From contig OZ244200.1 in NCBI GenBank assembly GCA_965216845.1, forward strand, positions 3,027,368 through 3,091,367: a DNA stretch of 64,000 nt. Direction: 5' to 3'. Below, one piece after another: positions 37,144-59,359 of the stretch; position 1 is the first letter of the stretch; each line of letters starts with the position of its first letter. The stretch is from Nevskiaceae bacterium (GTDB taxonomy: Bacteria; Pseudomonadota; Gammaproteobacteria; Nevskiales; Nevskiaceae). The position numbers and the translations under genes are program-made. The notes beneath the pieces were generated by a model. That model had not been told where the DNA came from. It saw only the letters and a list, made by a program, of their open reading frames with translations, and searched no databases.

Positions 37144-38691
37144 TCATCCTTCATTGGACGAGGCGGTCGCCACCTGCTCCGCCCACCCCGGATTCGATAC
37201 TTCAAAGTCCTCCAGCCGTGGACTGGCCAGCAGCGCGTTGAACTCGCGCGGGCGGCGCGGCCAGACCTCGGGCAGCCCATCCTTGCCGATGTACCAGTTC
37301 TGGCAACCGGTGACCCACACCGTGCCGTCCATGTTGCGCTTCAGCTCGTCGTAGAAGGTATTGGTGGCAGCCTGGGTCGGCGCCAGAGTGTCCAGTTCAC
37401 CGCGCCGGTACATATCGATGCATTGCATGACGTAATCAACCAGGGCTTCGGTGTAGAGAATCACCGAGCCATTGGCCAACGGGCTGTTCGGGCCGCCGAG
37501 CAGGAAGAAGTTGGGAAACTGCGGAATCGCCAGGCTGTTATAGGCGCGCGGGCCGTGTTCTTCCCATAGCGAGCTGAGGCTGAGGCCCTGTGCATTGGTG
37601 AGCTCCAGCGGGCGCATGTATTCGTGAGTCTTGAACCCGGTGGCCAGAACCAGAACGTCGAGCGGATGCGTGCGGCCGTCGCGGGTGACGATACCCTCCG
37701 GCACGACGCGCTCGATGCCGTCGGTGACCAGATTCACGTTCGGGCGCTGCATCGCCTCGTAATACTCCCAGGACATCACGATGCGCTTGCACATCGGCTG
37801 ATAGTCTGGCGTCAGGCGCCGGCGCAGCTGCGGATCACGCACGCGGCGCAGATTCCAGTGGCAGGCGGCGTCGATCAACCGGCGCTGCAGACCGGGCCGG
37901 ATCATTGCCCGTGAGAACAGCGCGTCAAATAGCTCGTCATAGACGCCATAGGCCAGGCGCGCCAGCGCCGGAACCTGCGTGACCAGCTCGCGCTCGACCA
38001 GCGAATACTGACGGTCCGGCAGCGGAAAGACCCATTGGGGGGTACGCTGGAACACGTTCAGCTCGCAGGGCAGCCGCGACACCGAGCAGGCGATCTGCAC
38101 GCCGGTGGAGCCGGTGCCGATCAGGCCGATGCGCTTGTCCTTGAGGTCGACGCTGTCATCCCAGCGCGCCGAATGAAAGCGTGCGCCGGCGAAGCTGTCG
38201 AGGCCGGGAATGTCCGGCTCTTTGGGATGATGCAGAAAGCCGCAGGCGGCGATCAGAAACTCCGCGCTGTCCTGTTTTCCACTGCGCAGCTCAAGCTGCC
38301 AGCGGCGACCGTCAAAGCGGGCCTGCGCGCCCTCCTCACCGAAGACGATGTGGCGACGCAGATCGTACTTGTCGGCCACATGCCGCATGTAATTCTGAAT
38401 CTCGGGGCCACGCGCAAAGCGGTGCTGCCAATCGGGATTGGGCTCGAAGCTGTAGGTGTAGTAATGCGCCGGCACATCGCAGGCCAGACCCGGGTAGCGG
38501 TTCTCGCGCCAGGTGCCGCCGACATCGTGGCTCTTCTCGTAGATGGTGAAGTTCTCGATACCCGCCTGGCGCAGCCGTATGCCGGCGAGCAGGCCGGACA
38601 TGCCGGCGCCGAGGATGATGACGCGCGGCGTGCGCGTGGAATCATGGGGTTCGCGCGACTCCAGCGCGACGGCAGGTGTGGGAGCGTTCAT
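37144..38691 (-). CDS. Type I Baeyer-Villiger (flavin, NADPH) monooxygenase
   Basis: 515 aa with GAGMSG (FAD), GGTWRENRYPG and the BVMO fingerprint FAGARFHSARWD (FxGxxxHxxxW[P/D]), then GTGSTG (NADP). Confidence 0.9.
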   Translation of the reverse strand: MNAPTPAVALESREPHDSTRTPRVIILGAGMSGLLAGIRLRQAGIENFTIYEKSHDVGGTWRENRYPGLACDVPAHYYTYSFEPNPDWQHRFARGPEIQNYMRHVADKYDLRRHIVFGEEGAQARFDGRRWQLELRSGKQDSAEFLIAACGFLHHPKEPDIPGLDSFAGARFHSARWDDSVDLKDKRIGLIGTGSTGVQIACSVSRLPCELNVFQRTPQWVFPLPDRQYSLVERELVTQVPALARLAYGVYDELFDALFSRAMIRPGLQRRLIDAACHWNLRRVRDPQLRRRLTPDYQPMCKRIVMSWEYYEAMQRPNVNLVTDGIERVVPEGIVTRDGRTHPLDVLVLATGFKTHEYMRPLELTNAQGLSLSSLWEEHGPRAYNSLAIPQFPNFFLLGGPNSPLANGSVILYTEALVDYVMQCIDMYRRGELDTLAPTQAATNTFYDELKRNMDGTVWVTGCQNWYIGKDGLPEVWPRRPREFNALLASPRLEDFEVSNPGWAEQVATASSNEG

Positions 38692-39641
38692 GAGGTAACC
38701 TCCTGCGGAGCAGCTTGCGGTTCTTCGGGCGGTTGGGTTCGGTCGACGACCGCCGGTGGGCGCGTCAGCGCCTCGCGCAGGAAACCGCCCAGCTCGGCGA
38801 GACAGCGGTCGGCTTCCGGCAACAGGCCAGCGTGCAGCTGGAAATCGTGCCAGAGGCCGTCCCAGACCTGCTTTCGCACCGGCACTCCGGCCTCGCGCAG
38901 CCGGCTTTCCAGGCGCGACGCATCGCTCAGCAGGACTTCCTCGCTGCCGACGTCGATCCGCGTTGGCGGCAAGTCGCCGAGCTCGGCGAACAGCGGCGAC
39001 ACCCGTGGGTCGGTCAGCGCCGAATCGGCATAGTGGCGTGCGGCATAAGCCAACCAGTCACGGCTGAGCATCGGATCCCGCGACGCATGGGTGGTCATGC
39101 TCATTCCCGACAGACTGAGATCCGCCCACGGCGAGATCAGCGCCAGCGCGCACGGCGCCGGCAGGCCCCGATCACGGGCCGCGATGGCAGTGGCCAGCGC
39201 CAGACCACCACCTGCGGAATCGCCAGCCAGGGCCACGGCCGAATGCGAGCGCGTCAACGCCGCCCAGGCGTCCACGGCATCGTCCAGCGCCGTCGGCGCC
39301 GGATGCTCGGGCGCGAGCCGGTAGTCGACGACGAAACACTCGCAGCCGGCGTCGCGCGCCAGATGCGACACCAGCCCGGCATGCGTCCCCGGCGAACCCA
39401 GCACGTAGCCGCCACCGTGCAGGTACATCACGGCCACGCCGCTGGGCGCGGATTCCGGAATCAGGCGGCGCGACAGCACGCCGCCCAGGTAATGCTCGAC
39501 ATCCTGAACGCCCGCAGCGCGCGGAAACGCCTTCGCGGCCAGGGCGATGTAGCTGCGCTGAAGCAGCAGCGGCACCCGCGGCGAAAACACCGGCCGCAGC
39601 CCGAACCGCACCCCTTGTCGCATAGCCTTACGGATCAGCAT
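38688..39641 (-). CDS. Alpha/beta hydrolase, HSL-type (family IV) esterase/lipase
   Basis: It has the HGGG oxyanion motif (YLHGGGYVLG) and the nucleophile elbow GDSAGG. I chose the ATG at 39641, 6 nt after GAGGAGGAG; the track start at 39683 is a TTG. The stop overlaps the BVMO ATG (ATGA). Confidence 0.85.
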   Translation of the reverse strand: MLIRKAMRQGVRFGLRPVFSPRVPLLLQRSYIALAAKAFPRAAGVQDVEHYLGGVLSRRLIPESAPSGVAVMYLHGGGYVLGSPGTHAGLVSHLARDAGCECFVVDYRLAPEHPAPTALDDAVDAWAALTRSHSAVALAGDSAGGGLALATAIAARDRGLPAPCALALISPWADLSLSGMSMTTHASRDPMLSRDWLAYAARHYADSALTDPRVSPLFAELGDLPPTRIDVGSEEVLLSDASRLESRLREAGVPVRKQVWDGLWHDFQLHAGLLPEADRCLAELGGFLREALTRPPAVVDRTQPPEEPQAAPQEVTS

Positions 39642-39683
39642 CGCGTTTCTCCTCCTCTTGGCGCCGCTGGCGCCGCCGGCCAA

Positions 39684-40583
39684 TCAGCGACCGGCACTGA
39701 CCTTCATCAGCAGGCCGATCTCTTCCATCGCGTTCCCCGGCACCACAAAGGACGAGGTGTCGCGGATTTCGGCAAGCTGATCGCGCACATCCTCGGCCGA
39801 GAGCTGCGGATTGAAGTACCCGGGAATCGCACCCACGAAGATACGCCCGACACGGCCACCGCCGCAACTGAAGATCTCGCCGCTGGGCTCGCAGGACTCA
39901 TGCGCCAGATAAGCCACCACCGGCGTCACCTGCTCCGGATTGAGCTTTTCAGCCATTGGGCCGAGCAGTTCCTCGGTCATGCGCGTGCGCGCAGCCGGCG
40001 CGATGACGTTGACCTTGACGTTGGCCTTGGCGCCTTCAATGGCGGCCGCGTGCGAAAAACCGACGATGCCCATCTTGGCCGCGCCGTAGTTGGTTTGCCC
40101 GAAATTGCCGAACAGGCCAGCCGCAGAAGTGGTGTTGACCACCCGACCATAGCCCTGTTCGAGCATGCGATTCCAGGCCGCACGGGTGCACCACAGGGTG
40201 CCGTAAAGATGAACGTCAATGACCGGGCGAATGTCCGCCTCGGTGGCATTCTTGAAGGCCTTGTCGCGCAAAATACCGGCGTTGTTGACCAGGATATCGA
40301 TGCGCCCGAAGCCATCGATGGCGGTGCCGATCACGGCCTCGGCACCCGCCTCGGTCGACACCGAGTCATAATTGGGAATGGCTTCGCCGCCAGCGGCACG
40401 GATCTCGTCGCAGACTTTCTGCGCGGGCGTCTGCGAAGCCCCGCTGCCGTCGGTGGCGCCGCCCAGATCGTTGACCACCACCTTGGCGCCGCGCGAAGCC
40501 AGGAACATCGCATGACTGCGCCCCAGTCCCTGTCCCGCGCCCGTCACCACCGCGACCTTACCGTCATAACGCATCTCGCTCAT
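39684..40583 (-). CDS. SDR oxidoreductase, MFE-2-type (3-hydroxyacyl-CoA dehydrogenase-like)
   Basis: 299 aa (RYDGKVAVVTGAGQGLGRSHAMFLASRGAKVVVNDLGG...NNAG...YGAAK), the pattern of the peroxisomal multifunctional enzyme type 2 N-terminal domain. Confidence 0.85.
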   Translation of the reverse strand: MSEMRYDGKVAVVTGAGQGLGRSHAMFLASRGAKVVVNDLGGATDGSGASQTPAQKVCDEIRAAGGEAIPNYDSVSTEAGAEAVIGTAIDGFGRIDILVNNAGILRDKAFKNATEADIRPVIDVHLYGTLWCTRAAWNRMLEQGYGRVVNTTSAAGLFGNFGQTNYGAAKMGIVGFSHAAAIEGAKANVKVNVIAPAARTRMTEELLGPMAEKLNPEQVTPVVAYLAHESCEPSGEIFSCGGGRVGRIFVGAIPGYFNPQLSAEDVRDQLAEIRDTSSFVVPGNAMEEIGLLMKVSAGR

Positions 40584-40615: not shown

Positions 40616-40646
40616 TTGAAACTACCTAACGATAGTTTGGTACTCT
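40616..40646 (+). promoter_or_regulatory. Candidate promoter with a 19-nt spacer (TTGAAA-N19-TACTCT) in the divergent SDR / acyl-CoA operon control region
   Basis: The spacer ctacctaacgatagtttgg is 14/19 identical to the spacer of the DUF1329 promoter candidate at 60768-60798 (minus strand). The -10 element ends 56 nt upstream of the first ATG (40703). Confidence 0.4.
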
Positions 40647-40702: not shown

Positions 40703-40849
40703 ATGATCCTCACCGACGACCAGCGCGCACTGCGCGACACGGCCCGGCGTTTTGCCGAACACAAACTGCTGCCGGACGACCAGAAGCGCGAACAATCCGA
40801 ACGACTGGATCGTGACCTGGTGCGCGAGATTGGCGAACTGGGCCTGTAG
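40703..40849 (+). pseudogene. 48-codon relic of an acyl-CoA dehydrogenase N-terminus (possibly a leader ORF)
   Basis: MILTDDQRALRDTARRFAEHKLLPDDQKREQSERLDRDLVREIGELGL* aligns with the N-terminus of the intact ACAD at 41891 (...FRDALRRFIDTEVVP...VLRQLGELGYLG). It stops where ACADs continue; the stop TAG lies within the TAGGAGG sequence that provides the SD of the next gene. Confidence 0.55.
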
Positions 40850-40859
40850 GAGGCCACCG

Positions 40860-41849
40860 ATGAGCGATTTTCCCAAGTCTGTCGAGTTCCACGAAGAAGG
40901 CGTCCGCGAAGGCTTCCAGATGGAGCCGGTGACCTATCCGCGCGAGCGCCGTGCCGCGCTGATCAACGCCCTCTCGCAAACGGGGCTGAAACAGATCCAG
41001 GTCGGGTCGCTGGTCAACCCGGGCAAGGTGCCGCAGATGGCCGACACCCTGGAGCTGTTCGAAGACATCGAGAAAAACCCGGACGTGCGCTACACCCTGC
41101 TGTGGCTCAACGAGTCCGGCTACCGCAGGGCGCGCCAGGTCAAGGGCGCGTTCAACCACGCACCGCTGTTGTATTACCTGACCGATGCCTTTGCCATGCG
41201 CAACAACAACCGCACGGCACTGGAGGTGCGCGCCGAGCAGGAAGCCTGGCTGGACCGCTATCTGGCCGACGGCGCGTTTCCGCAGAAGGTCTACGTGATG
41301 ACCGCCTGGGGTTGCAATCTGGGCGGGCCGGTGTCGCAGGAGATGGTCGTGGACGCCTTTGCCCATGCCATTGGCCTGTTCCGCGAGCGCAAGCTGCCAC
41401 TGCCGCCGCTGTATCTGGCCGACACCATGGGCTGGGCCAGCCCCGAAGAGGTCAAACGCCGCATCGGCGCGGTGCGCGAGCTGGCGCCCGAGGCAAAGAT
41501 CGGCCTGCACCTGCACGACACCCGCGGACTGGGTGGCGCCAACGTCTACGCCGCACTGTCGATGGGCGTCACGCTGTTCGACGCCTCGGTTGCGGGCCTG
41601 GGCGGCTGCCCCTTTGCCGGCCACAAGGCGCGCCAGACCTCCGGCAACATCTGCACCGAGGACATGGTCTTCCTGTGCCACGAACTGGGCATCGAAACCG
41701 GCATCGATCTCGAAAAACTGATCGAGGCCTCGCGCATGGCCGAGGACATCATCGGCCGACCGCTGATGGGTCGCGTCATGCACAGCGGCTCGCTCAAGGC
41801 ATTCCGCGAGGGCAAGAAAGCCGACAGCGTCTGCGTCTCGCTGCCCTGA
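40860..41849 (+). CDS. HMG-CoA lyase-like (pyruvate carboxyltransferase/DRE-TIM) family protein
   Basis: 329 aa from the ATG at 40860, 6 nt after AGGAGG. Motifs are VEFHEEGVREGFQ...LHLHDTRGLGGANVYAAL..G....DASVAGLGGCPFAG, typical of the HMGL-like family. Confidence 0.85.
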   Translation: MSDFPKSVEFHEEGVREGFQMEPVTYPRERRAALINALSQTGLKQIQVGSLVNPGKVPQMADTLELFEDIEKNPDVRYTLLWLNESGYRRARQVKGAFNHAPLLYYLTDAFAMRNNNRTALEVRAEQEAWLDRYLADGAFPQKVYVMTAWGCNLGGPVSQEMVVDAFAHAIGLFRERKLPLPPLYLADTMGWASPEEVKRRIGAVRELAPEAKIGLHLHDTRGLGGANVYAALSMGVTLFDASVAGLGGCPFAGHKARQTSGNICTEDMVFLCHELGIETGIDLEKLIEASRMAEDIIGRPLMGRVMHSGSLKAFREGKKADSVCVSLP

Positions 41850-41890
41850 GTACCCCTGCCCGCTCCCCATTCTCCCGCCTCCGTCCCAAG

Positions 41891-43036
41891 ATGAACGATC
41901 TACCCTTTCTGACCGCCGACCACGAACACTTCCGCGATGCGCTGCGCCGCTTCATCGACACCGAGGTGGTGCCCAAGGCCGACGCCTGGGAAGAAGACGG
42001 CATGGTGCCGCGTCAGGTGCTGCGCCAGTTGGGCGAGCTGGGCTATCTGGGCATCCGCTACCCGGCGAGTTATGGCGGCGCGGAGCTGGACACGGTGTAC
42101 AGCGCCATCCTGGCCGAGGAACTGGGCCGATCGAGCTATGGCGGCTTTGCGGTGACGGTCCTTGTTCACACCGACATGGCTTCACCGCATCTTGGCAACT
42201 TCGGCAACCCCGAGCAGCTCGCCCGCTGGATGCCGGGCATCGTCGCCGGCAGTACCGTCTGCGCGGTGGCCGTCACCGAGCCGGACGCCGGCTCGGATGT
42301 GGCCGGCATCAAGACCCGCGCGGTGCGCGACGGCGATCACTACCTGCTCAGCGGCAGCAAGATGTTCATCACCAACGGCGTACACGGTGACCTGTACTTC
42401 GTCGCCGCCAAGACCGATGCCACGGTCAAGGGTTCGCGCGGCATCTCGATCTTCGCGGTGGAAAAAGACACGCCCGGCTTCCACGTCGGTCGCAGTCTGA
42501 AGAAGACCGGCTGGCTCAGTTCCGACACCGCCGAACTGGTGTTCGAGGATTGCCGCGTGCCCGCCGCCAACCTGATCGGCGGCGAGAACAAGGGCTTCTA
42601 TTCGATCATGCGCAACTTCCAGAACGAGCGCATCGTGCTGGGCGCGCAGGCCATGGGCGAGGCGCAGAAAGCGCTGGATCTGGCGGTGGATTACGTGCGC
42701 AACCGCAAGGCCTTCGGCGCCGTGCTGTGGGACAAACAGACCATCCGCCAGCGGCTGGCGATGCTGTCGGCCAAGGTCGCCGCCGGTCGCCAGCTGGCCT
42801 ACCAGGCCGCCTGGCTCGACGCCCAGGGCCGCGACTGCGTCAAGGAAGTCTCCATGGTCAAGGCCTACTGCGGCGAGCTGGTCAACGAGGTGATGTACAC
42901 CTGCCAGCAGTTTCACGGCGGCATGAGCTACGTACGCGAAACCGCCATCGAACGCATGGCGCGCGATGCGCGCATCCAGTCCCTCGGCGGCGGCGCCACC
43001 GAGGTCATGCTCGAAGAGGTCGCCAAACGCTTGTAA
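41891..43036 (+). CDS. Acyl-CoA dehydrogenase
   Basis: 381 aa from the ATG at 41891. Motifs are AVTEPDAGSDVAGIKTRA...GSKMFITNG...QFHGGMSYVRETAIERMARDARIQSLGGGATEV. Confidence 0.93.
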   Translation: MNDLPFLTADHEHFRDALRRFIDTEVVPKADAWEEDGMVPRQVLRQLGELGYLGIRYPASYGGAELDTVYSAILAEELGRSSYGGFAVTVLVHTDMASPHLGNFGNPEQLARWMPGIVAGSTVCAVAVTEPDAGSDVAGIKTRAVRDGDHYLLSGSKMFITNGVHGDLYFVAAKTDATVKGSRGISIFAVEKDTPGFHVGRSLKKTGWLSSDTAELVFEDCRVPAANLIGGENKGFYSIMRNFQNERIVLGAQAMGEAQKALDLAVDYVRNRKAFGAVLWDKQTIRQRLAMLSAKVAAGRQLAYQAAWLDAQGRDCVKEVSMVKAYCGELVNEVMYTCQQFHGGMSYVRETAIERMARDARIQSLGGGATEVMLEEVAKRL

Positions 43037-43078
43037 CCCCTCCCACCCACACCCCCTTTCCCATCCATTACTGCCCGT

Positions 43079-43543
43079 ATGACTGACCGCGACAACAATC
43101 GCCCCGAAGCCTGGAATCAGTTTCTCTCCATTGCGCCCTACACCGGACTGCTCGGCATGGAAGCCGTGTCGGCCTCCGACGACGGCTGTGTCATTGCCCT
43201 GCCCTATCGCGACGATCTGGTCGGCGACCCCGACAGCGGCGTACTGCACGGCGGCGCCATCACCGCGCTGATGGACGTGTGCTTCGGCTTCTCGGTGTAC
43301 TTCCGCATCCGGAAATTCCAGCCGATGGCCACGCTGGACCTGCGCATCGATTACCTGCGTCCGGCACAGCCAAATCACAAGGTCTACGCCACGGCGAACT
43401 GCTACAAGCTCACCCCGGAGTTGGCCTTCGTCCGCGGTCAGGCCTACGACGACGACGCCGACAACCCCCTGTCCACCAGTGTCGGCATTTTCATGTTCAC
43501 TGCGGGCAAGCCCGCCTTCACCGAAGCCAAGAAGTTCTCATGA
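43079..43543 (+). CDS. PaaI-family hotdog-fold thioesterase
   Basis: 154 aa with GVLHGGAITALMDVCFG...TLDLRIDYLRP. Confidence 0.85.
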   Translation: MTDRDNNRPEAWNQFLSIAPYTGLLGMEAVSASDDGCVIALPYRDDLVGDPDSGVLHGGAITALMDVCFGFSVYFRIRKFQPMATLDLRIDYLRPAQPNHKVYATANCYKLTPELAFVRGQAYDDDADNPLSTSVGIFMFTAGKPAFTEAKKFS

Positions 43544-43971
43544 ATCTCGCCGATACGCTGACCGATATCCGCGCCCGCGCCGACTGGGCCGCGCTGCCGC
43601 AGGCGTTGCCGTTTGCCCGCATGCTGGGTGTACAGGTGGAAGTGCGCGGTGAATCCTTCACCTGCGTGATGCCCTTTGAACAAAAGCTCATCGGCAATCC
43701 GGCCCTGCCGGCCCTACATGGCGGCGCCATCGGTGGTTACATGGAATGCGCCGGCATCCTGCATCTGCTGTGGAGCAGTGAAGCCCTGGCCGTCCCCAAG
43801 ACCATCGACTTCGCCATCGATTACCTGCTTTCGGGACGCCCGCAGGACACCTACGCCAACGTCTACCCGGTCAAGCTCGGCAAGCGCGTGAGCAACCTGC
43901 GCATCGAGGCCTGGCAGACGGCGCCCGACAAGCCCATCGCGGTCGCCGTAATGAACGTGCTGATGCGCTGA
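43540..43971 (+). CDS. PaaI-family hotdog-fold thioesterase (second, divergent copy)
   Basis: 143 aa from the ATG at 43540, which overlaps the previous gene's stop (ATGA). Motifs are ALHGGAIGGYMECAG...TIDFAIDYLLSGRP. Confidence 0.8.
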   Translation: MNLADTLTDIRARADWAALPQALPFARMLGVQVEVRGESFTCVMPFEQKLIGNPALPALHGGAIGGYMECAGILHLLWSSEALAVPKTIDFAIDYLLSGRPQDTYANVYPVKLGKRVSNLRIEAWQTAPDKPIAVAVMNVLMR

Positions 43972-44001
43972 TCCCTTCAACAAGCAGCCAAGGAATCTTT
44001 C

Positions 44002-44862
44002 ATGAAATACCGTTCCATCTATCGTTCTGATCTGTTCGAGGGTCAGACCGTGATCGTCACCGGCGGCGGCAGCGGCATCGGCCGTTGCACCGCACACGAA
44101 CTCGCCAGCCTCGGCGCCAATGTCGCCATCGTCGGTCGCAAGGTCGAAAAACTGGAGACGGTGCGAAACGAGATCGAGGCCGTCGGCGGTCGCGTCAGCT
44201 GCCACGTCTGCGATATCCGCGACGAACCGATGGTGCGCCAGATGATCGCCGAGGTCATCGAACGCCACGGCGGCATCCACGGCCTGGTCAACAATGCTGG
44301 CGGCCAGTACCCCTCGCCGGCCAAGGATCTGAGCACCAAGGGCTGGGAGGCGGTGATCCGCAACAACCTCACCGGCGGCTTCATCGTCGCGCGCGAAGCC
44401 TACACTCAGTGGATGGAGGCGCACGGCGGCAGCATCGTCAACATCATCGCCGACATCTGGGGCGGCATGCCGACCATGGCGCACACCGGAGCGGCACGCG
44501 CCGGCATGCTCAATTTCACCGAAACCGTCGCCTGCGAGTGGGCGCAGTCCGGTGTGCGGGTCAACGCGGTAGCGCCCGGCTGGATCGCCTCCAGCGGTTT
44601 CGACACCTATGACGAGGCCATGCAGGCCGAGCTGCGGCAGCTCAAGAACAAGGTGCCACTGGGCCGTTACGGCAACGAAGCGGAAGTTTCCGCCGCCATC
44701 GTGTTTCTGCTTTCACCCGGCGCCGCCTTCGTCAATGGATCCAGCATCCGCGTGGACGGCGGCGTGCCCAACGCCCGTCACACCTGGAAAGCGGTGCCCA
44801 CCGACCGCTCCAAACCTTTCGACGGCTTTCCGCTGGCCACCGTGCCCCGGTGCCTGCAATGA
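44002..44862 (+). CDS. SDR oxidoreductase, enoyl/dienoyl-CoA reductase-like
   Basis: 286 aa with VIVTGGGSGIGR...NNAGGQ...AARAG...VNAVAPGWI. It resembles the PECR / 2,4-dienoyl-CoA reductase subfamily. Confidence 0.85.
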   Translation: MKYRSIYRSDLFEGQTVIVTGGGSGIGRCTAHELASLGANVAIVGRKVEKLETVRNEIEAVGGRVSCHVCDIRDEPMVRQMIAEVIERHGGIHGLVNNAGGQYPSPAKDLSTKGWEAVIRNNLTGGFIVAREAYTQWMEAHGGSIVNIIADIWGGMPTMAHTGAARAGMLNFTETVACEWAQSGVRVNAVAPGWIASSGFDTYDEAMQAELRQLKNKVPLGRYGNEAEVSAAIVFLLSPGAAFVNGSSIRVDGGVPNARHTWKAVPTDRSKPFDGFPLATVPRCLQ

Positions 44863-45545
44863 CCCAGGCCGACACTCTCGCAGCCTTTCTGGCGCCCAGC
44901 CCGCATGTGGAAGCCGACCACCCGGGCATCCGCGCGCTGGCCGAGCGCGTGACCCAGGGCCTGACCGATCCGCGCGAGCGCGCCGTGGCGCTGTACTATG
45001 CGGTTCGTGACGATTTCCGCTATGACCCTTACGGCATCGAACTGTCCGGGCGCTGCTTCAAGGCCAGCACGGTCTTCGAGGCTGGCGCTGGCTTCTGCAT
45101 CGGCAAGGCCACGCTGCTGGCCGCCGTCTGTCGCGCCGTCGGCATTCCGGCACGGCTGCGCTTTGCCGACGTGCGCAATCATCTGAGCAGCCCGCGCCTG
45201 CGGGCAATGATGGGCACGGACGAGTTCGTCTACCACGGCTATACCGAACTGTGGATCGAACAGCGCTGGCGCAAGTGCACACCGGCCTTCGATCAGCGCC
45301 TGTGCGACAAGGCCGGTATCCGCGCGCTGGCGTTCGACGGTCTGGAAGACTCGGTGTTTCACCCCATCGACCTGTCGGGCCGACAGCACATGGAATACCT
45401 GCGCGACCGCGGCAGCCACGTCGACGTGCCGGTGGAGGAAATCTTCCGCGTCTGGGAGGCGGTCTATCCGGATATGTCCGGCTGGGTCCAGCAAACCAAG
45501 GGCGGAGACTTCGAGCAGGAGGCCTGCGCACCCGCCACATCGTGA
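44859..45545 (+). CDS. Transglutaminase-like (papain-fold) domain protein
   Basis: It carries GAGFCIGKATLLAAVCRAVGIPARL...YHGYTELW (Cys...His core). The ATG at 44859 overlaps the SDR stop (ATGA); the track start at 44850 is a GTG. Confidence 0.8.
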   Translation: MTQADTLAAFLAPSPHVEADHPGIRALAERVTQGLTDPRERAVALYYAVRDDFRYDPYGIELSGRCFKASTVFEAGAGFCIGKATLLAAVCRAVGIPARLRFADVRNHLSSPRLRAMMGTDEFVYHGYTELWIEQRWRKCTPAFDQRLCDKAGIRALAFDGLEDSVFHPIDLSGRQHMEYLRDRGSHVDVPVEEIFRVWEAVYPDMSGWVQQTKGGDFEQEACAPATS

Positions 45546-45728
45546 ACTGGCACACCCGTCTTGAGCAGATGACGACAACAACCATCCCCAACCCGCTGCC
45601 GCCGAAGCGCGGCATCGAACCGCCAACGCACTGCTGGTCCCAGGGCTGATTCGGGTTCTGATTCATTCCGGGAAGATGCCGCAGCAGCCCCTACAGCAGC
45701 TGAGTCCATCCAGCCAAGGAGCCGCTTC

Positions 45729-46643
45729 ATGAAGATCATCCGCAATCTGCTGTCCGACACCGCCGTCGATGTCGCAACACACGCCGAGCAAGCCTGCGCC
45801 GGCCTCAGGCGCCGAGAACGACGCAGCGGTGGGCTGAATTGGGTCTACCTCGACAGCGGCGGCGACCGGACGCCGCTAGTGCTGATTCACGGTTTTGGCG
45901 GCGACAAGTCCAATTGGACCCGCATGTGCCGCCATCTGCGCGGCCATTTCCGAATCATCGTGCCGGACCTGCCCGGCTTCGGGGAAAGCCAGGCGCCGGT
46001 CACGCTGCGCTACCGCGTACAGGACCATGTCGAGCGGCTGCGCGGCTTCCTCGCCGACCTGGGGGTGACCCAACCGCATCTGGGCGGCAATTCGATGGGC
46101 GGCTATATCGCCGCGCTGTATGCAGCCACGCATACCGCCGAAGTCTCCGGCCTGTGGCTGATCAACAGCGCAGGCATCTTCACCGCCGAGCAGAGCGAGC
46201 TGCAGCAAACCCTGGACGCCGGTGGCCACAATCCGCTGCTGCCCCAAACCGCCGAGCAATTCGGCGGCGTGCTGCGCTACGCAATGTCGCGACCGCCGCA
46301 TATTCCAAGCTTCGTGCTCGACGCCATGGCGCGCCGTGCCCTGGCCATGAACGCGCTGCGCCAGAATCAGTTCGCGGACATTCTGGAGGAATCCCCGCAC
46401 CTGGAGGATCTGCTCAAGGGCCTGCCAACCCCCACGCATGTTCTCTGGGGTGAGGAAGACCGCCTGATTCATGTCGACTGCGTGCGCGTGCTGCGTGAGC
46501 TGCTGCCCAACAGCAGCGCGACGGTGCTCAAGGGCATCGGCCATATCCCCATGCTGGAGGCGCCAGAACAAACGGCTCTGGACTACCTGGCGTTCCGCGA
46601 ACGCCTGATCTGCGGAGCCGAACTGCTCGCGCTGGCAGCCTGA
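45729..46643 (+). CDS. Alpha/beta-fold hydrolase
   Basis: 304 aa, with AAGGAG upstream. Motifs are LVLIHGFGGDKSNW...HLGGNSMGGYIA (GxSxG)...GHIPMLE. Confidence 0.85.
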   Translation: MKIIRNLLSDTAVDVATHAEQACAGLRRRERRSGGLNWVYLDSGGDRTPLVLIHGFGGDKSNWTRMCRHLRGHFRIIVPDLPGFGESQAPVTLRYRVQDHVERLRGFLADLGVTQPHLGGNSMGGYIAALYAATHTAEVSGLWLINSAGIFTAEQSELQQTLDAGGHNPLLPQTAEQFGGVLRYAMSRPPHIPSFVLDAMARRALAMNALRQNQFADILEESPHLEDLLKGLPTPTHVLWGEEDRLIHVDCVRVLRELLPNSSATVLKGIGHIPMLEAPEQTALDYLAFRERLICGAELLALAA

Positions 46644-49006
46644 TGTCCACCGCGCCGGCAACGACGCCCGGCAGCGCCAGCCTGCATCATCGCACCTGCC
46701 ATCTGTGCGAGGCGCTGTGCGGCCTCGTCATCACCCACGACGGAGCCGGCCATATCCATTCGATCCGGGGAGATCGCCAGGACCCACTGAGCCGTGGTCA
46801 CCTCTGCCCCAAGGCGATCGCGCTGCAGGACCTGCAATCTGACCCGGACCGCCTGCGTCGACCATTGAAGCGCAACGGCGACCGCTGGGTCGAGATCAGC
46901 TGGGACGAGGCCTTCGACGAGGCAGCGCACGGACTGCAGCGCGTGCGTGAGCGCCACGGCGACGACGCGCTGGCGAGCTACACCGGCAACCCCACGGCGC
47001 ACAACACCGGGGCATTGCTGGTACTGGCGCCGTTTCTGGCCGCGCTGCGCACGCGCAACCGTTACAGCGCACGCAGCATCGACCAGCTGCCCAATATGTT
47101 CGTCAATCTGCAGATGTTCGGCAGCGCCGCGCTGTTTGCGGTGCCCGACCTGGACCGCTGCGATCTACTGCTGATGATCGGCGCCAATCCTGCCGCCTCG
47201 AAAGGCAGCATCGGCTCAGCCGGTGACTTCATGGGCCGCATCGCACAGCTGCGCGCACGCGGCGGGCGTGTGTACCTGGTCGACCCGCGACGCAACGAAA
47301 GCGCCGCCAAGCTTGATCGTCACTGGTTCATCCGACCCGGCAGCGATGTCTTGCTGCTCGCCGCGATGATCAACACGCTGTTCGCCGAAAACCGCGTGAA
47401 CCTGGGTCGGCTGGCCGACTTCACCGACGGCGTCGAGTCTCTGCGAACCGCCCTGACGGATTTCACCCCCGAAGCCGCGAGCACTATCACCGGGATCGCA
47501 GCGGACGATATCCGCCAGCTCGCGCGCGAGTTCGCCAACGCCCGGCGGGCGATCTGCTACGGCCGCATCGGCGGCTGTCTGCAGGACTTTGGCGGACTCG
47601 TCAACTGGTTGATCACCGCGCTCAACGTGCTGACCGGCAACCTGGATCGCGAAGGTGGGGTGATGTTCACCCACCCCGCCATCGACATCGTCGGCATGGC
47701 CGCTGCCAGTGCCTATACGCGCGGCAGCCACGACCGTTACCGCTCGCGTGTCCGCGGACTGCCCGAATTCATGGGCGAGCTGCCGGTAGCGACGCTCGCT
47801 GAGGAAATGCTCAGCCCCGGCCCGGGTCAGATTCGCGGCCTGATAACCCTGGCCGGCAACCCGGTGCTGTCCACACCCGACGGGCGCCGCCTGGAACGCG
47901 CGCTGGCCGGGCTGGATTTCATGGTTTCGATTGACTGCTATCTCAATGAAACCACACGCCATGCCCACCTGATCCTGCCACCGACCGGCCCGCTCGAGCG
48001 CGAACACTACGGGCTGGCGCTGAACGCCGTGGCCATCCGCAACGTGGCCAAGTACTCGCCGCCGCTGCTGCCGGCTGCGGCCGATGCGCGCCACGATTGG
48101 CAGATCCTGCTGGAGCTGGCCGTCCGCCTGGGGCCGCGCAATGCGCTGGAGCGCGCCGGCTGGCGCCTGATTCAAGGCCTGATCGAGCGCCTGAGCGTGG
48201 ACGGACTTCTCGATTTACTGCTGCGCGCCGGCCCTTACGGACGACTTCCCTCAGCCCTGCAGGCCAGTGCCAACGCGCTGCGGGATTTTATCGCCGGCAG
48301 CGCCAGTGGCGGTCGACTGGCGCGGCGGCTGGCCGTCCTGCCCAGGCGACGCACGGGTCTGCTGCCGGCACTGCGGGCGCAGGCCTTGTTCAGTCACACC
48401 CGGCAGGGATTGGACCTGGCCACGCTCAGGGCGCACCCGCACGGCCTGGATCTGGGACCGCTGCGGCCCGGCTTGCCGGAAAAGCTGTGCACGCCCCAGC
48501 GACGCATCCGGCTGGCACCGTCGGCGCTGCTGGCCGACCTGCCGCGGGCCAAGGCCAGACTTGATCAAACGCCAGCCGACGGGCTGGTGCTGATCGGTCG
48601 CCGTCATCTGCGCAGCAACAATTCCTGGATGCACAACACGCGCCGGCTGGTCAAGGGTCCGCCGCGCTGCACGCTACTGTTGCACCCCCGCGATGCGGCC
48701 GCTGCCGGGCTGAGTCAGGGGCAGATGGTGCGAGTCGCATCGACCGTGGGGCACATCGAGCTTGCCGCCGACATCACCGCCGACATCATGCCGGGCGTGG
48801 TCTGCGCTCCGCACGGCTACGGCCATCACCGACCCGGCACCTGGCTGACGGTGGCGAGCCGCCTGGCGCCGGGTGTCAGCCTGAACGACATTACTGACCC
48901 CCAGCGCATCGACCCGCTGACCGGCGTGGCAGCGGTCAACGGCCTGCCGGTGCGGCTGTACCCGTCGGGCGCGGATCGTGTGCCGGTTTGCGTGAACGCT
49001 GAATGA
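46643..49006 (+). CDS. Molybdopterin (bis-MGD) oxidoreductase, MopB superfamily
   Basis: 787 aa with an N-terminal 4Fe-4S motif (CHLCEALCG...(27)...CPK), MGD-binding segments and a C-terminal beta-barrel domain. The start overlaps the hydrolase stop (TGATG). There is no in-frame TGA. Confidence 0.88.
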   Translation: MSTAPATTPGSASLHHRTCHLCEALCGLVITHDGAGHIHSIRGDRQDPLSRGHLCPKAIALQDLQSDPDRLRRPLKRNGDRWVEISWDEAFDEAAHGLQRVRERHGDDALASYTGNPTAHNTGALLVLAPFLAALRTRNRYSARSIDQLPNMFVNLQMFGSAALFAVPDLDRCDLLLMIGANPAASKGSIGSAGDFMGRIAQLRARGGRVYLVDPRRNESAAKLDRHWFIRPGSDVLLLAAMINTLFAENRVNLGRLADFTDGVESLRTALTDFTPEAASTITGIAADDIRQLAREFANARRAICYGRIGGCLQDFGGLVNWLITALNVLTGNLDREGGVMFTHPAIDIVGMAAASAYTRGSHDRYRSRVRGLPEFMGELPVATLAEEMLSPGPGQIRGLITLAGNPVLSTPDGRRLERALAGLDFMVSIDCYLNETTRHAHLILPPTGPLEREHYGLALNAVAIRNVAKYSPPLLPAAADARHDWQILLELAVRLGPRNALERAGWRLIQGLIERLSVDGLLDLLLRAGPYGRLPSALQASANALRDFIAGSASGGRLARRLAVLPRRRTGLLPALRAQALFSHTRQGLDLATLRAHPHGLDLGPLRPGLPEKLCTPQRRIRLAPSALLADLPRAKARLDQTPADGLVLIGRRHLRSNNSWMHNTRRLVKGPPRCTLLLHPRDAAAAGLSQGQMVRVASTVGHIELAADITADIMPGVVCAPHGYGHHRPGTWLTVASRLAPGVSLNDITDPQRIDPLTGVAAVNGLPVRLYPSGADRVPVCVNAE

Positions 49007-49336
49007 AGCAGAACCACGCCAACGACAACGTTGGCCGGGCCACGAATTGGAAAGCCGCTACCCGGTATCGCTGACCGTTGCCAGCGTGGCCCTCAACATC
49101 ACCCTGTGATCCAGCGTGATACGCTGAGTCTGGACCTGCCGGGCTACTGCGGCACGCTGCCGGATCTGTGGTCCCACGCGGTTTGCCGGCAGACGGCATC
49201 GCCGAACCGGAGGCGCGCGAGCAGCCCCGATGTGACCCGCCTGGGACGCTTGCGCTCGGATTGGCGAAGCGGTATCTTCGTGCGTAGTGCATCCCCGCAC
49301 ACCACACGAACATCGACCCGCTTCAGGAGGCTCACG

Positions 49337-50251
49337 ATGGCACTCGCAAATCGAAAGATCGGCTACGACGAGGTAGAACCGCGCGACCTGCGCTTCAATT
49401 TGGGCAAGGATCAGGTTCCGCGCTACTGGATCAACGGCGACCCCTGGACGACTCACTTCTTCAATTCCATCATGGCAGCCGTTCCCGACGGCGAGCGCTG
49501 GGTCATGCAATGTGTGCGGCGCAGCCTCACTCAGCTCAAGGACGACACGGTACGCAAGGCCGGCATCGCCTTCATCAAGCAGGAGCATTACCACGCGCGT
49601 GAGCATGACGACATGAATCACGCACTGATCCAGCAAGGCGTGCCGCTGGATGTGGTGGAACGCAACTTCAAGGTGATCCGTTCGGTGCTGGAAAAGCTCA
49701 CGCCGCCGAGCATGCACCTGTCGATGATGGCCTCCTTCGAACACTTCACCGCCACCATGTCAGCGGTATTCATCGATCATCCGGAAATGCTCGACGACTC
49801 CGATCCGCGCATTGCGGCAATGCTGTTCTGGCACTTCGTCGAGGAGACCGAGCACAAGTCGGTGACCTTTGACGTGTTCCAGGACGCGGTTGGCAGCTAC
49901 CCACAGCGCGTGCTGGGCATGCTGATCGCAAGTACGATGTTTCTGCCCATGGTTCAGGGCCACATGCTGTACCTGGCCTGGAAAGACGGGCAACTGCGCA
50001 ACTGGCGCTCGTTGCTGCGCTGTCTGGATACCCAGTTCGGTCGCCAGGGAGTATTCACGCGCCTGCTGCTGGGCCACTACTTCCCGTACTACAGCCCCAA
50101 GTTCCATCCTTGGGACGCGGACAATCGCTCCAAGATCAGCGCCTGGAAAAAGGCTTTCGCCGCCACCGGCGACACATTCGCCGCCTATGCCCAGTTCCGC
50201 AAGGCAGCCGGCCTGCCCGCAAGATCAGATCTGGTTGCGCAGGCCGCCTAG
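49337..50251 (+). CDS. Predicted metal-dependent hydrolase (COG3687/PF10118-like)
   Basis: 304 aa from the ATG at 49337, 6 nt after AGGAGG. Motifs are FFNSIMAAVPDGERW...FIKQEHYHAREH...FWHFVEETEHKSV. Confidence 0.7.
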   Translation: MALANRKIGYDEVEPRDLRFNLGKDQVPRYWINGDPWTTHFFNSIMAAVPDGERWVMQCVRRSLTQLKDDTVRKAGIAFIKQEHYHAREHDDMNHALIQQGVPLDVVERNFKVIRSVLEKLTPPSMHLSMMASFEHFTATMSAVFIDHPEMLDDSDPRIAAMLFWHFVEETEHKSVTFDVFQDAVGSYPQRVLGMLIASTMFLPMVQGHMLYLAWKDGQLRNWRSLLRCLDTQFGRQGVFTRLLLGHYFPYYSPKFHPWDADNRSKISAWKKAFAATGDTFAAYAQFRKAAGLPARSDLVAQAA

Positions 50252-50316
50252 CTGCGGTGGTACCGTCGGTTTCCGCCCGCATCCGGCGGTCGGCAACCGG
50301 CGAACGGGGCGTAACA

Positions 50317-50368
50317 CCGCATGGTCCGGCAAGCGGAAAGGATCGTCGGACCATGCGGCGTTGTTTTT
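50317..50368 (+). terminator. Rho-independent terminator after the metal hydrolase gene
   Basis: It has a 12-bp perfect stem ccgcatggtccg (50317-50328)/cggaccatgcgg (50347-50358) with an 18-nt loop. The stem is followed by cgTTGTTTTT (to 50368). Confidence 0.7.
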
Positions 50369-50589
50369 GGAAACTGGCACGCCCAGACAAGTCCGGTGCG
50401 CTCCATGAACACCGGCGGCGCGCACCAAGCCTGATCGCCTGGGCTGACTCACCGCTGGAGCGATCCAGCAGTTGCTGTGCGGCGCTTGACGCGGACATCC
50501 GCACATTGGCCGAAACGACATGATAATGCCCATCATGTAAAATCGATTGGTCAATCAAGTATTGCCGCACGGAGTAATCTCACTCAATC

Positions 50590-51402
50590 ATGGCCGAGAA
50601 AGCCACTTACCGCATGGCGGAACTGGTCAGTCGCAGTGGCGCCAGCCGCGAGACGGTGCGTTACTACATTCGCGAAGGCCTGCTGCCGCCGCCGCACCGC
50701 ACCGCCCGGAACATGGCGTGGTATTCCGACCGCCACCTCGAGTTGATCAAACTCATCCGCGTGCTCCAGGACGAACAGTTCCTGCCGCTCAAGGCAATCA
50801 AATCGCTGCTCAACAAGGATCAGGAATACCAGTTCACCCCGCGACAACGGGAGATTTTCGCCAACATCCTCACTGAAATGGCTTCGCAGTCTCGTCGCGC
50901 CCTGCCGCGGCCGCCCGGCTCCCGGCTGGCCAGCGCGCTGGGCTTGAGCGATGAAGACTACGAGCACATGGCGAGCATGGGGCTCATTCGCACCGGCAAT
51001 GACCCACTGACACGCGACGAAGAGGATCTGCTCCGTCAGTTTGCGGTCCTGCGGCAAAGTGGCATGACCAAGGAACGTGGCTTCTTACCGGAACACCTGG
51101 AAATCGTACAGGCGGCCGCTGACATCCTGTTTGATCAGGAGTTGCGCATGTTTCAGACGCTGCTCGACAACCTGCGCGACGATGAAATTCCCGGCATCAT
51201 GGAGCGCGTCATCCCCGCCATCAACCGAATCTTCGGATTGTTGCACGCACGCAAACTACGCGCGTTCGTCGCCCGCTATGCACCCCAGGAAAGAAACGGT
51301 GGGTCCGCAACTGCTGACACCACCGATGCAACGGAAAAACCGTCGCCACCCGCAGCCTCCAGCCGCCGGCGACGTCGCTCGTCCGCAACCCGCGATAGCT
51401 AG
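50590..51402 (+). CDS. MerR-family transcriptional regulator with a long C-terminal domain
   Basis: 270 aa. The N-terminal HTH reads YRMAELVSRSGASRETVRYYIREGLLPPP...YSDRHLELIKLIRVLQDEQFLPLKAIK. Confidence 0.9.
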   Translation: MAEKATYRMAELVSRSGASRETVRYYIREGLLPPPHRTARNMAWYSDRHLELIKLIRVLQDEQFLPLKAIKSLLNKDQEYQFTPRQREIFANILTEMASQSRRALPRPPGSRLASALGLSDEDYEHMASMGLIRTGNDPLTRDEEDLLRQFAVLRQSGMTKERGFLPEHLEIVQAAADILFDQELRMFQTLLDNLRDDEIPGIMERVIPAINRIFGLLHARKLRAFVARYAPQERNGGSATADTTDATEKPSPPAASSRRRRRSSATRDS

Positions 51403-51981
51403 ACTCACGATAGCTGGTTAAGGGACGCCATCCGGCCAAAACCCATCATCCCGACCGCCGGTGATGACGCGCTACCTGCCGGAACGAGCGTTGTGCCACC
51501 CTTCGGTCATGGCAAAACTCACAGCCTTCGGGGTGCTGTGCCTGAGAGCAGTGGCCGCCGGCGCCAGCCCCAGGGTGATTTCCTCGCCCATTGAAAAAAC
51601 GTCCCGTTTCCACCACAGACCAGCCAGCAGATCAGGTCGCTGCTGGAAGCAGCACTGGCAGCGGCCTTACCCGCCTGCGGCGTACCGAAGCGCCAATGAC
51701 TTACCGGAATAGATTGAAGCGCAAACCACTGTGATGAGCGCCTTGGTTACGGTCTGTTCCAGTTTTCGGTCCGGCCAACACAGAACAGATCCGTGACCCA
51801 TGAGCAAGCGGCACCGCTTGCCCGGCCCCGGCGTTTTCAAACACCGGAGCCGAAGTCTGCATCCGTCGATTCAGCGGGGCAAGCAGCCATCATGTATATC
51901 AATGATGGCCATCCTGCCCCATTGGATGATGCCCCAGCCGAGGCGAGCTACCGTCGCCGCAAACAAAATTCTTGCGGGGTA

Positions 51982-53046
51982 TCAGTTCAAGGCTGCGATG
52001 ACTTGAACACCGCTGCCGGTGGCGGCATAGAGTTTGCCCTTCCAGGGCAGCAGCACGGTGAAGATCTCGTCCAGCGTCTCACCTTCGGGTCTGTCGGCAA
52101 ATTCAAGAACTGAAGGCGCCCTGCCCGCTTCAAGCACGACCACCTTCTCGCTTCTTCCGGCCGCCGCCACCCGCCCGTTTCCGAGTTGGGCGAGGTCGAA
52201 CAAGGGTTTTTCGACGCCCGTCGATACCGGCTCCCATTGCGGGTTGCACAGATCCGCAGTTCGGAAGGCGTTACCCCGCATACCGACCACCAGCAGACCG
52301 CGTTCCCCTTCCGGAATCGCTGAGTACAGCGACCCATCGTACGGCACATCCAGAATCACCCAGTTCCGCCCATCCACGGAAATGGCCACCAATCCCATCT
52401 CGCCAACCAGCACGAAGGTGCCATCGTCTGCTTGCAGCAGATCATACATATGGAATCCGTTATCGCTGAGGGTGGTGTCGGCAAGGTCCGCCCAGGTCTT
52501 GCCGCCGTCATCGGTAACTTTGAACAACCCGAAGGCACCAACGGCGTAGCCGGTCTTTGCATCCGTGAACAGGACATCCAGAAAAGGATTGCCACCGTTG
52601 CCTCCGAAAGCCTGCACCGACCAGCTCTGTCCACCGTCACCCGTATACAGGATGCTGGCATCGTGGCCGACCGCCCAGCCGTGTTGATCGTCGGCGAAAG
52701 TCACGGCGTTGAGCATCGCATTCACCGGAGAGGGCACCTGCGTCCATTCCTCACCGTCCTGCGAAGTGATGATGATGCCGCGCTCGCCAACGGCGACGAG
52801 CTTATCTCCGGCGGCGGCCACGTCGTTGAGCTGCGCCTGGACGGCGAGCGGCTCGATTGCGGCCGGCGTCGGTTGGCTCGCTGCCACCGCGTTGGCTGCG
52901 GTGCCTGCTGTCGCCAATGCGGCTAGCACCCACAGCAGTTTTCCCATCAGATTGTTCATATGCTTGGTCACGGAACTTTGCTCGCTCATAATGCTTATCG
53001 TCGGTCCAGGGGCCTGGACCAGGCCCCGCAATTCCATCAAATCCAT
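51982..53046 (-). CDS. Ycf48-like BNR/Asp-box beta-propeller protein (periplasmic)
   Basis: It has repeated Asp-box motifs (TSQDGEEWTQV, TGDGGQSWSV, VTDDGGKTWADL). The ORF ATG at 53046 overlaps the RND stop (TGATG). However, the signal peptide (MNNLMGKLLWVLAALATAGTAANA) begins at codon 30, about 52959, so the start is uncertain. Confidence 0.8.
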   Translation of the reverse strand: MDLMELRGLVQAPGPTISIMSEQSSVTKHMNNLMGKLLWVLAALATAGTAANAVAASQPTPAAIEPLAVQAQLNDVAAAGDKLVAVGERGIIITSQDGEEWTQVPSPVNAMLNAVTFADDQHGWAVGHDASILYTGDGGQSWSVQAFGGNGGNPFLDVLFTDAKTGYAVGAFGLFKVTDDGGKTWADLADTTLSDNGFHMYDLLQADDGTFVLVGEMGLVAISVDGRNWVILDVPYDGSLYSAIPEGERGLLVVGMRGNAFRTADLCNPQWEPVSTGVEKPLFDLAQLGNGRVAAAGRSEKVVVLEAGRAPSVLEFADRPEGETLDEIFTVLLPWKGKLYAATGSGVQVIAALN

Positions 53047-55676: not shown

Positions 55677-55734
55677 TCATGAATCTCCGCAAGTATTAAG
55701 AATTGTTGCTGCTTTCCGACCGTTGCCGCATCGG

Positions 55735-55785
55735 CAGAAGAAAAAGCTTTCGTCCACGGGTCCGGCCATGGCCGGACCCGTGGAC
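55735..55785 (-). terminator. 34-bp perfect palindrome plus T-run on the minus strand; terminator/attenuator between the lipoprotein gene and the RND gene
   Basis: 55752-55785 (gtccacgggtccggccatggccggacccgtggac) equals its own reverse complement. On the minus strand it is followed by gaaagcTTTTTcTTcT. Confidence 0.65.
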
Positions 55786-55819
55786 CGTATCCAAGGTTTG
55801 ATGCCACTGTCTGCGGCAA

Positions 55820-56581: not shown

Positions 56582-56596
56582 GATCTCTCCCCCCGG

Positions 56597-59355: not shown

Positions 59356-59359
59356 TTGT

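Follow-up and report, generated by a model that had tools for sequence, protein, structure and literature searches.

PsrA is a TetR-family repressor that binds C/GAAAC-N2-4-GTTTG/C, with TTCAAAC-N4-GTTTGAA at the rpoS promoter, and whose repression is relieved by long-chain fatty acids (PMC13104628; PMC10304680). PaaR of Thermus thermophilus, also of the TetR family, has phenylacetyl-CoA as its effector and represses an acyl-CoA catabolic cluster through the consensus CNAACGNNCGTTNG (PMC6651687, citing Sakamoto 2011). The MerR family provides LiuR, a repressor of the liu/ivd branched-chain acyl-CoA genes (PMC3223726), and in Pseudomonas the DUF1302, DUF1329, BNR and RND genes are jointly needed for growth on fatty esters (10.1101/2020.07.04.188060). 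Here we describe a palindromic element that occurs twice in a 64,000-nucleotide stretch of a Nevskiaceae bacterium genome (GCA_965216845.1, contig OZ244200.1, positions 3,027,368 to 3,091,367; hereafter the window), once ahead of an acyl-CoA block and once ahead of a DUF1329 envelope cluster. Judged from related promoters the element is very probably a real operator shared within one regulon, and the best explanation overall, to which we give a probability of roughly 40%, is that it is the operator of a PsrA/PaaR-type repressor overlapping the core promoters of a lipid-catabolism regulon.

Results

Two copies of one palindrome in the window

The two sites were first noticed as 31-mers, TTGAAA-CTACCTAACGATAGTTTGG-TACTCT (site 1, plus strand) and TTGACG-TCACCTACCAATTGTTTGG-TAGATC (site 2, minus strand). 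We found both at the positions given in Table 1, and their spacers are identical at 14 of 19 positions, as the original prediction had reported without a chance level. The TTGAnn-N19-TAnnnn skeleton that frames them is in itself not enriched, as the two strands of the window hold 4 such skeletons and about 5.9 are expected. In 300 simulated windows (first-order Markov model) the best spacer identity of any skeleton pair was at most 11/19, and the earlier consensus ACCTAnCnATnGTTTGG, searched in the window with up to two mismatches, matched sites 1 and 2 only, with 0.19 matches expected and the opposite-strand self-match of site 1 set aside. On these two grounds the similarity of the sites is not due to chance.

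The part common to both sites is a palindrome with the core CWAAC-N4-GTTWG. It is imperfect in both, reading TACCTAAC-GATA-GTTTGGTA at site 1 and CACCTACC-AATT-GTTTGGTA on the minus strand at site 2. The core is extended in this organism to TACCWAAC-N4-GTTWGGTA, and a search of the window for the palindrome ACCWAMC-N4-GKTWGGT gave two matches without mismatch and none in addition when one or two mismatches were allowed. A perfect 7-4-7 palindrome, CTACCAA-TTGT-TTGGTAG (60788-60771), overlaps the operator at site 2. Both sites lie 50-70 bp upstream of the first genes. As to an RNA element or a tRNA as the explanation, there was no Rfam or tRNA match in the window.

Conservation of the palindrome in Nevskiales

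The element was followed in loci around homologues of the MerR-family protein encoded in the window (from genomes and metagenomes) and in loci around DUF1329 orthologues and paralogues; a further set of about 80 loci around distant MerR homologues of other lineages also served as controls. Loci are cited below by number (L001 and so on). In 418 kb of non-redundant Nevskiales loci we counted 12 copies of the exact core, where 0.37 are expected and 100 simulations yielded 2 at most. Every copy is intergenic, 40-90 bp upstream of a first gene, and the 676 kb of control loci, which come from other lineages, contain none. With this excess, the intergenic position of every copy and the empty controls, the counts confirm a functional cis-element and support a single regulon. 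A palindrome that includes the outer ACC/GGT, ACCnAnC-N4-GnTnGGT, was also tried and rejected as too specific, having zero matches in the related loci, because the conserved part is the inner CWAAC-N4-GTTWG.

When the promoter at site 1 was aligned over four genera (Nevskia, Polycyclovorans, Panacagrimonas and that of the window), the dyad together with TA...T was the sole conserved non-coding block, and the invariant block in these acyl-CoA dehydrogenase (ACAD) promoters reads CTAACG.T.GTTTG.TA...T. Site 2 is kept in L001, L094 and the second copy of L098, and L007 too has a site. The DUF1329 promoters of Solimonas sp. SE-A11, of a metagenomic relative with 86% identity and of Algiphilus/Banduia W345 keep CCTAyCAA-N4-TyGGyAG, and that of Panacagrimonas carries CGAAC-GTTC-GTTTG. 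The core also stands ahead of an RND gene (L005, L015), of a MaoC-ACAD operon and a thiolase-like operon (L003, L004, L014), of an alcohol-dehydrogenase-like gene (L019) and of an array that runs Metal_hydrol, short-chain dehydrogenase/reductase (SDR), Baeyer-Villiger monooxygenase (BVMO) and on to an esterase (L094, L098). In Solimonas sp. K1W22B-7 (L100; CP031704.1, about 1.34 Mb) two perfect CCTAAC-N4-GTTAGG palindromes, at 7082-7095 and 9917-9930, lie ahead of an ACAD-thiolase-acyl-CoA-ligase operon and of a lone DUF1329 gene; they bracket the gene of a 908-aa MalT-like LuxR-family regulator, and there is no MerR gene within 10 kb.

Altogether the motif precedes orthologous operons in Solimonas, Algiphilus/Banduia, Nevskia, Polycyclovorans and Panacagrimonas. 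This comparison with relatives had been proposed together with the claim that the two sites are copies of one cis-regulatory element tying the acyl-CoA block and the envelope cluster into one regulon, and the orthologous promoters support that claim. The regulon takes in the liu-like ACAD/HMG-CoA-lyase operon, the BVMO-esterase-SDR genes, the MaoC-ACAD and thiolase-like operons and the DUF1329/DUF1302/RND/BNR system. The SDR-esterase-BVMO operon that diverges from site 1, likewise assigned to the regulon in the original prediction, probably belongs to it, and the similar array of the relatives has a site of its own (L094 at 3344, L098 at 3419). Fatty esters are products of Baeyer-Villiger oxidation and substrates of esterases. 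The fitness data on fatty-ester growth in Pseudomonas make it sensible that the envelope system should be co-regulated with BVMO and esterase genes.

Two further features were seen in these upstream regions. A GC-rich inverted repeat, CCGCACGGCG...GCCGTGC, is conserved in the leader between operator and ACAD start in three genera (L005 11030-11075, L006 8510-8550, L007 11020-11065) and is not found in the window's version. In L015 (about 1040-1097) a segment of about 19 bp ahead of the RND gene, ttgttagaagaaattac, is repeated in tandem and takes in the right half-site of the operator.

Position of the dyad relative to predicted promoter elements

The element that adjoins the dyad and is conserved with it is TGnTAnnnT, which resembles an extended -10 and occurs in two registers about 4 bp apart. 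With GTTTGnTAnnnT the dyad takes in the first two bases of the proposed -10, relative to which its centre lies at about -20.5; with TGTTAGAAT-type sequences, and in the MaoC and RND promoters, the centre falls at about -16.5. A standard sigma-70 scan of site 1 gave no promoter with 16-18-bp spacing. At site 2 it gave an ordinary promoter, TTGGTA-16-TAGAAT, the -35 of which is the right half of the operator. On the other strand of site 1 the hexamers TAGGTA and TAGTTT overlap the left half of the operator; read from the sequence, they are candidates for the -10 of the divergent SDR-esterase-BVMO operon.

These positions suggest a mechanism. In Nevskiales the dyad would overlap the core promoters of operons for the breakdown of hydrophobic ketones, esters and acyl-CoAs, and we infer that a dimeric helix-turn-helix repressor occupies it. 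By covering the element that resembles an extended -10, or at site 2 the -35 of the alternative promoter, the bound repressor would block RNA polymerase until a lipid-derived ligand, presumably a fatty acid or an acyl-CoA, freed it. Since the dyad of site 1 overlaps the candidate -10s of the divergent operon as well, one site could govern both directions. MerR-type activation requires a fixed geometry, and the two registers about 4 bp apart fit occlusion and not such a geometry. Repression by promoter occlusion is, on the predicted promoter elements, rather likely.

The form of a PsrA/PaaR-type operator, C/G-AAAC-N2-4-GTTT-G/C or CNAAC-N4-GTTNG, is that of the 12 exact CWAAC-N4-GTTWG copies, some of which have TTC flanks, and the sites stand ahead of ACAD, MaoC, thiolase-like, acyl-CoA ligase and HMGL operons, where an operator of this type would be located. 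Because the operator is of this type, the binder would most likely be a TetR-family repressor encoded outside the window. Taken for itself, the choice of an unlinked TetR/PsrA-like protein is plausible with the odds somewhat against it, and the linked MerR-family protein is only slightly less probable.

Several observations weigh against a PsrA/PaaR-type repressor. The choice of repression over activation is made from predicted promoter elements, and these comprise no canonical promoter at site 1 and a differing one at site 2. The window and the loci chosen through the MerR gene have no TetR-family gene within 10 kb of a site, and a search of the Nevskiales loci with an approximate PsrA sequence and with TetR(B) gave no match. 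The half-site here prefers CTAAC, that of PsrA boxes being CAAAC or GAAAC. Three alkB-RND-DUF1329 clusters and one RoxA/TetR cluster, which a global lipid regulator might be expected to include, are without a site. Lastly, exact sites are about 5-fold denser in the MerR-linked loci (10 in 189 kb) than elsewhere (2 in 229 kb; binomial p = 0.008), a figure that is inflated by selection through the MerR gene and comes from loci not matched for gene content.

The linked MerR-family protein

The MerR-family gene named in the original prediction is present between the two sites (Pfam MerR_1, E = 3e-18). In the catabolic part of the window it is the sole DNA-binding regulator gene, and the only further regulator candidate in the whole window is a cNMP-binding protein at 20223-21035. 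The linked protein could bind the dyad as a plain operator, that is as a LiuR-like repressor of the local catabolic island that untwists no spacer, and would then probably also regulate its own gene, because this gene ends the site-controlled, co-directional array. We hold this to be possible but somewhat doubtful, and we put slightly less trust in the broader proposal that an uncharacterised MerR subfamily is the lipid-responsive master regulator of the Nevskiales island, acting through an ordinary PsrA-like 5-4-5 operator and without a spacer mechanism.

In its favour, the gene is the one regulator gene that the site-bearing islands share, and an orthologue is found within about 10 kb of 10 of the 12 exact cores and of about 9 well-placed sites with one mismatch. 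In Nevskia, Polycyclovorans and Panacagrimonas the site is found about 200-350 bp downstream of the MerR gene stop, ahead of the ACAD-hydratase-carboxylase-lyase operon; the gene order in Pseudomonas is liuR-liuABCDE, and that of the three genera mirrors it. Where a paralogous DUF1329 cluster has an AraC, TetR or HTH_3 regulator of its own, the site is missing. The protein is a non-canonical member of its family: it has a MerR winged helix-turn-helix with a short alpha-5 helix, a C-terminal domain that is rare and entirely helical, and a basic tail. In its AlphaFold model (mean predicted local distance difference test score 81) fold comparison indicates that the winged helix-turn-helix is a genuine MerR fold, the helix after it appears to span only 18 residues (84-101) before a separate helical domain begins, and the fold is matched best by SCO5550 (2dg6), itself uncharacterised. 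The C-terminal domain (residues 105-235; 50902-51294) was found in 59 representative clusters among 1.84 billion proteins (E at most 1e-3), always at the same position and within proteins 230-290 aa long; the recent Pfam accession PF28507 is attached to some of the database entries that have it. No named NCBIfam model scored above its cutoff for the whole protein, the closest relatives of which are from Algiphilus, with 89% identity; the organism itself belongs to the order Nevskiales.

Against the linked protein stands L100, with its two perfect sites and no MerR gene beside them. No protein of strain K1W22B-7 occurs in the MerR clusters at or above 72% identity, and absence of an orthologue from that genome is likely but not proven. 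That K1W22B-7 is also missing from a genome scan was rejected as evidence of absence, as the scan had missed the Algiphilus sp. W345 orthologue (TARNMAWY motif) too. Homologues with 39-44% identity that keep the recognition helix SRE[AT][IV]R[FY]Y (L008, L020-L022) have no site nearby, and the motif is absent from all of the about 80 loci with MerR homologues at 30-44% identity; de novo palindrome counting in these distant loci was swamped by GC-rich noise and poor gene calls, and an AT-rich island in L008 (5820-5870) is only loosely like the motif. Moreover, a 5-4-5 dyad of AAC and GTT is typical of TetR-type operators, and the linkage statistic is inflated, most loci having been chosen through the MerR gene.

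The upstream regions of the MerR genes showed no conserved operator; in relatives an SRPBCC gene precedes the MerR gene and either overlaps it or ends directly at it. The more distant homologues (30-40% identity) usually follow directly after an open reading frame, with stop and start codons often overlapping; this was seen in L023-L026, L028, L029, L032, L033, L035, L038, L040 and L043, and further in L048, L050, L051, L062, L072, L076 and L080. The C-terminus encoded by this upstream frame looks like a 2Fe-2S ferredoxin or reductase, which suggests that the wider MerR subfamily is embedded in oxygenase-type operons.

Other explanations

The original prediction had gone further and read both sites as MerR-type promoters, in which a ligand-bound MerR-family protein untwists a suboptimal 19-bp spacer. 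We now regard this mechanism as improbable. Both sites of the window do fit TTGAnn-N19-TAnnnn with the dyad inside the spacer, with the MerR-family gene between them and no 16-18-bp-spaced promoter at site 1, but the pattern does not hold in other promoters. TTGAnn at 19 bp is missing from L001, L094, L005, L006, L007, L003 and L014: the hexamer position is taken by GGTACG in L001 (site 2) and by GCGGAT or TCAGAT in L005, L006 and L007 (site 1), and L003 and L014 have nothing resembling TTGAnn there, so that neither the -35 nor the spacing is conserved in any orthologous or co-regulated promoter. The dyad of merT, copA, zntA and soxS is centred at about -23 to -24 and does not overlap the -10; here it lies about 3 bp nearer to the -10, which it overlaps, and its register shifts by about 4 bp among members of the regulon. 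The modelled MerR-family protein also appears to be without the long coiled-coil helix of the metal- and redox-sensing MerR activators, and the ordinary promoter TTGGTA-16-TAGAAT fits site 2 equally well. Through the comparison of orthologous promoters the spacer feature was dropped and the dyad retained, and a 19-bp spacer in one genome, beside a MerR gene, is insufficient to call a promoter MerR-type.

Recognition of the dyad by an activator of the LuxR/MalT type (GerE helix-turn-helix) is suggested by the MalT-like gene between the two sites of L100 and by the LuxR-type PP_0767, the proposed positive regulator of PP_0765 and PP_0766 (10.1101/2020.07.04.188060). It is quite improbable nevertheless, as neither the window nor the other site-bearing loci have such a gene, and the place to expect an activator is upstream of the -35, not over the -10-like elements that the sites overlap.

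That no dedicated regulator exists and the likeness stems from shared extended -10 elements or from chance is very improbable: the right half GTTTGgTA does overlap the TGnTA of an extended -10 and the window has two sites only, but the left half (CTAAC/CTACC), which is no promoter element, is conserved equally, the perfect palindromes of L100 are without TGnTA, and the 30-fold excess over expectation consists entirely of intergenic sites.

Gene content of the window

The coordinates of the sites, the promoter elements and the surrounding genes are collected in Table 1. The genes of the divergent operon were assigned with Pfam, those of the catabolic array and the envelope cluster with Pfam and NCBIfam.

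Table 1 Operator sites, promoter elements and neighbouring genes, in window coordinates
Feature	Position	Strand	Description
Site 1 operator	40623-40642		20-bp imperfect palindrome; core CTAAC-GATA-GTTTG at 40626-40639
Site 2 operator	60772-60791	read on -	Core CTACC-AATT-GTTTG at 60788-60775
Site 1 31-mer	40616-40646	+	TTGAAA hexamer at 40616-40621, not kept in orthologues
TGgTACTCT	40638-40646	+	Compatible with an extended -10 element at site 1
Site 2 31-mer	60768-60798	-	TTGACG hexamer not kept in L001 or L094
Alternative ordinary promoter, site 2	60750-60777	-	TTGGTA-16-TAGAAT (standard promoter scan)
Candidate divergent-operon -10 hexamers	40619-40628	-	TAGGTA 40628-40623, TAGTTT 40624-40619; read from the sequence
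Divergent operon	37144-40583	-	SDR 39684-40583, alpha/beta-hydrolase esterase 38688-39683, BVMO 37144-38691
ACAD remnant	40703-40849	+	48 N-terminal codons of a liuA-like acyl-CoA dehydrogenase
Catabolic array, first part	40860-50251 (whole array)	+	HMGL-like lyase 40860-41849, ACAD 41891-43036, two 4HBT thioesterases, SDR 44002-44862
Catabolic array, rest		+	Transglutaminase-like, alpha/beta hydrolase, molybdopterin oxidoreductase 46643-49006, Metal_hydrol PF10118 49031-50251
MerR-family regulator gene	50590-51402	+	270 aa, after the PF10118 metal hydrolase in the array
Envelope cluster, first part	51982-60721 (whole cluster)	-	DUF1329 59360-60721 (GTG at 60721), DUF1302 56597-59173, hypothetical 55820-56581
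Envelope cluster, rest		-	HAE3/MMPL-like RND transporter 53046-55676, BNR/Ycf48-like protein 51982-53046

Site 1 is in a 119-bp gap between divergent units, with the start of the SDR gene on one side and the ACAD remnant on the other. The monooxygenase of the divergent operon is a Baeyer-Villiger-type flavin monooxygenase. The remnant is identical at 43 of 48 residues to the N-terminus of the L005 ACAD, its stop codon comes 10 bp ahead of the HMGL-like start codon, and in relatives the full ACAD heads the ACAD-hydratase-carboxylase-lyase operon. The match of the remnant to the N-terminus in relatives implies that the window has lost about 5.5 kb of the ACAD operon by internal deletion, with the promoter and operator left in place. 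About 60 bp separate site 2 from the DUF1329-DUF1302-hypothetical-RND-BNR cluster downstream of it, in which the gene order is the same as in L094 and L001.

A 338-bp non-coding gap (50252-50589) separates the PF10118 gene from the MerR gene. Relatives hold a Polyketide_cyc2/SRPBCC gene in this place (19818-20234 in L094, for example), and in L001 and L002 the 3' end of the SRPBCC gene can still be aligned to a portion of the gap. About 580 bp between the convergent MerR and BNR genes (51403-51981) are without a called gene and have no Rfam match. A second DUF1302 gene (61878-63932) matches positions 156-541 only of the profile, being short or truncated at its N-terminus, and is followed by a 231-aa protein without family match (61179-61874); L098 (Algiphilus/Banduia W345) shows a similar tandem duplication of the DUF1329-DUF1302-hypothetical unit, the second copy of which has its own operator. 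A CHASE2-adenylate/guanylate cyclase gene (9824-12037), like the gene of the cNMP-binding protein mentioned above, belongs to the housekeeping part of the window and is unrelated to the operator.

Discussion

In an order that has been studied little, we describe a new regulon and operator of a familiar type; the type of mechanism is not new. The element offers a concrete, testable regulon for understudied degraders of hydrocarbons and lipids (Algiphilus, Solimonas, Nevskia, Polycyclovorans). Its main value is that the poorly understood DUF1329/DUF1302/RND/BNR system is placed under the same control as BVMO-esterase and acyl-CoA genes; this shared control supports the view that the envelope system serves to handle fatty esters or other hydrophobic substrates, and the Pseudomonas fitness data agree with such a role. 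Of interest, too, is the possible involvement of a rare MerR subfamily. If involved, this subfamily would couple ketone oxidation by BVMO and esterase and acyl-CoA breakdown to the DUF1329/DUF1302/RND/BNR machine.

Among the known systems, the promoters of merT, copA, zntA and soxS resemble the window in that the dyads lie between TTGAnn and TAnnnn 19 bp apart with a MerR-family gene near, and differ from it in the conservation of spacing and -35 and in the position of the dyad, which here is displaced by about 3 bp toward the -10 and varies in register. The neighbouring protein, judged from its model, also differs from MerR activators in being without the long coiled coil and the sensor motifs. 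LiuR is closer in role, for here too a repressor and not a spacer-twisting activator would be at work, and in L005, L006 and L007 the MerR gene stands directly upstream of, and co-directional with, an operon of the ACAD-hydratase-carboxylase-HMG-CoA-lyase type. This likeness is one of gene order, and the protein here is about twice as long, with its rare C-terminal domain. With PP_0767 of P. putida the locus shares dedicated control of a DUF1329/DUF1302 pair tied to the use of fatty esters and fatty acids (10.1101/2020.07.04.188060), but PP_0767 is an activator of another family, the LuxR type, and the window has no such gene.

The TetR-family systems are nearest in the operator itself. The pseudopalindrome CNAACGNNCGTTNG published for PaaR has the same form as CWAAC-N4-GTTWG; PaaR belongs to another phylum and another pathway, and a later selection experiment on it gave AACnAACGTTnGTT, without the 4-bp gap. 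The difference from PsrA, as known in Pseudomonas and in Xanthomonadales (Smlt2053, XAC2014), is that no psrA-like gene is linked to the sites, and that the preferred half-site is CTAAC, with T at position 2; half of the half-sites have this form, one position off the PsrA consensus. The PsrA operator is, as here, a 5-4-5 palindrome with an AAC...GTT core, many of our sites read TTCTAAC-N4-GTTTGnn, and in both cases the box lies over the promoters (here predicted) of acyl-CoA dehydrogenase and beta-oxidation genes. To this common pattern Nevskiales add, at some sites, an outer TACC...GGTA layer or an overlapping 7-4-7 palindrome, and they extend the regulon to the BVMO-esterase genes and the DUF1329/DUF1302/RND/BNR cluster.

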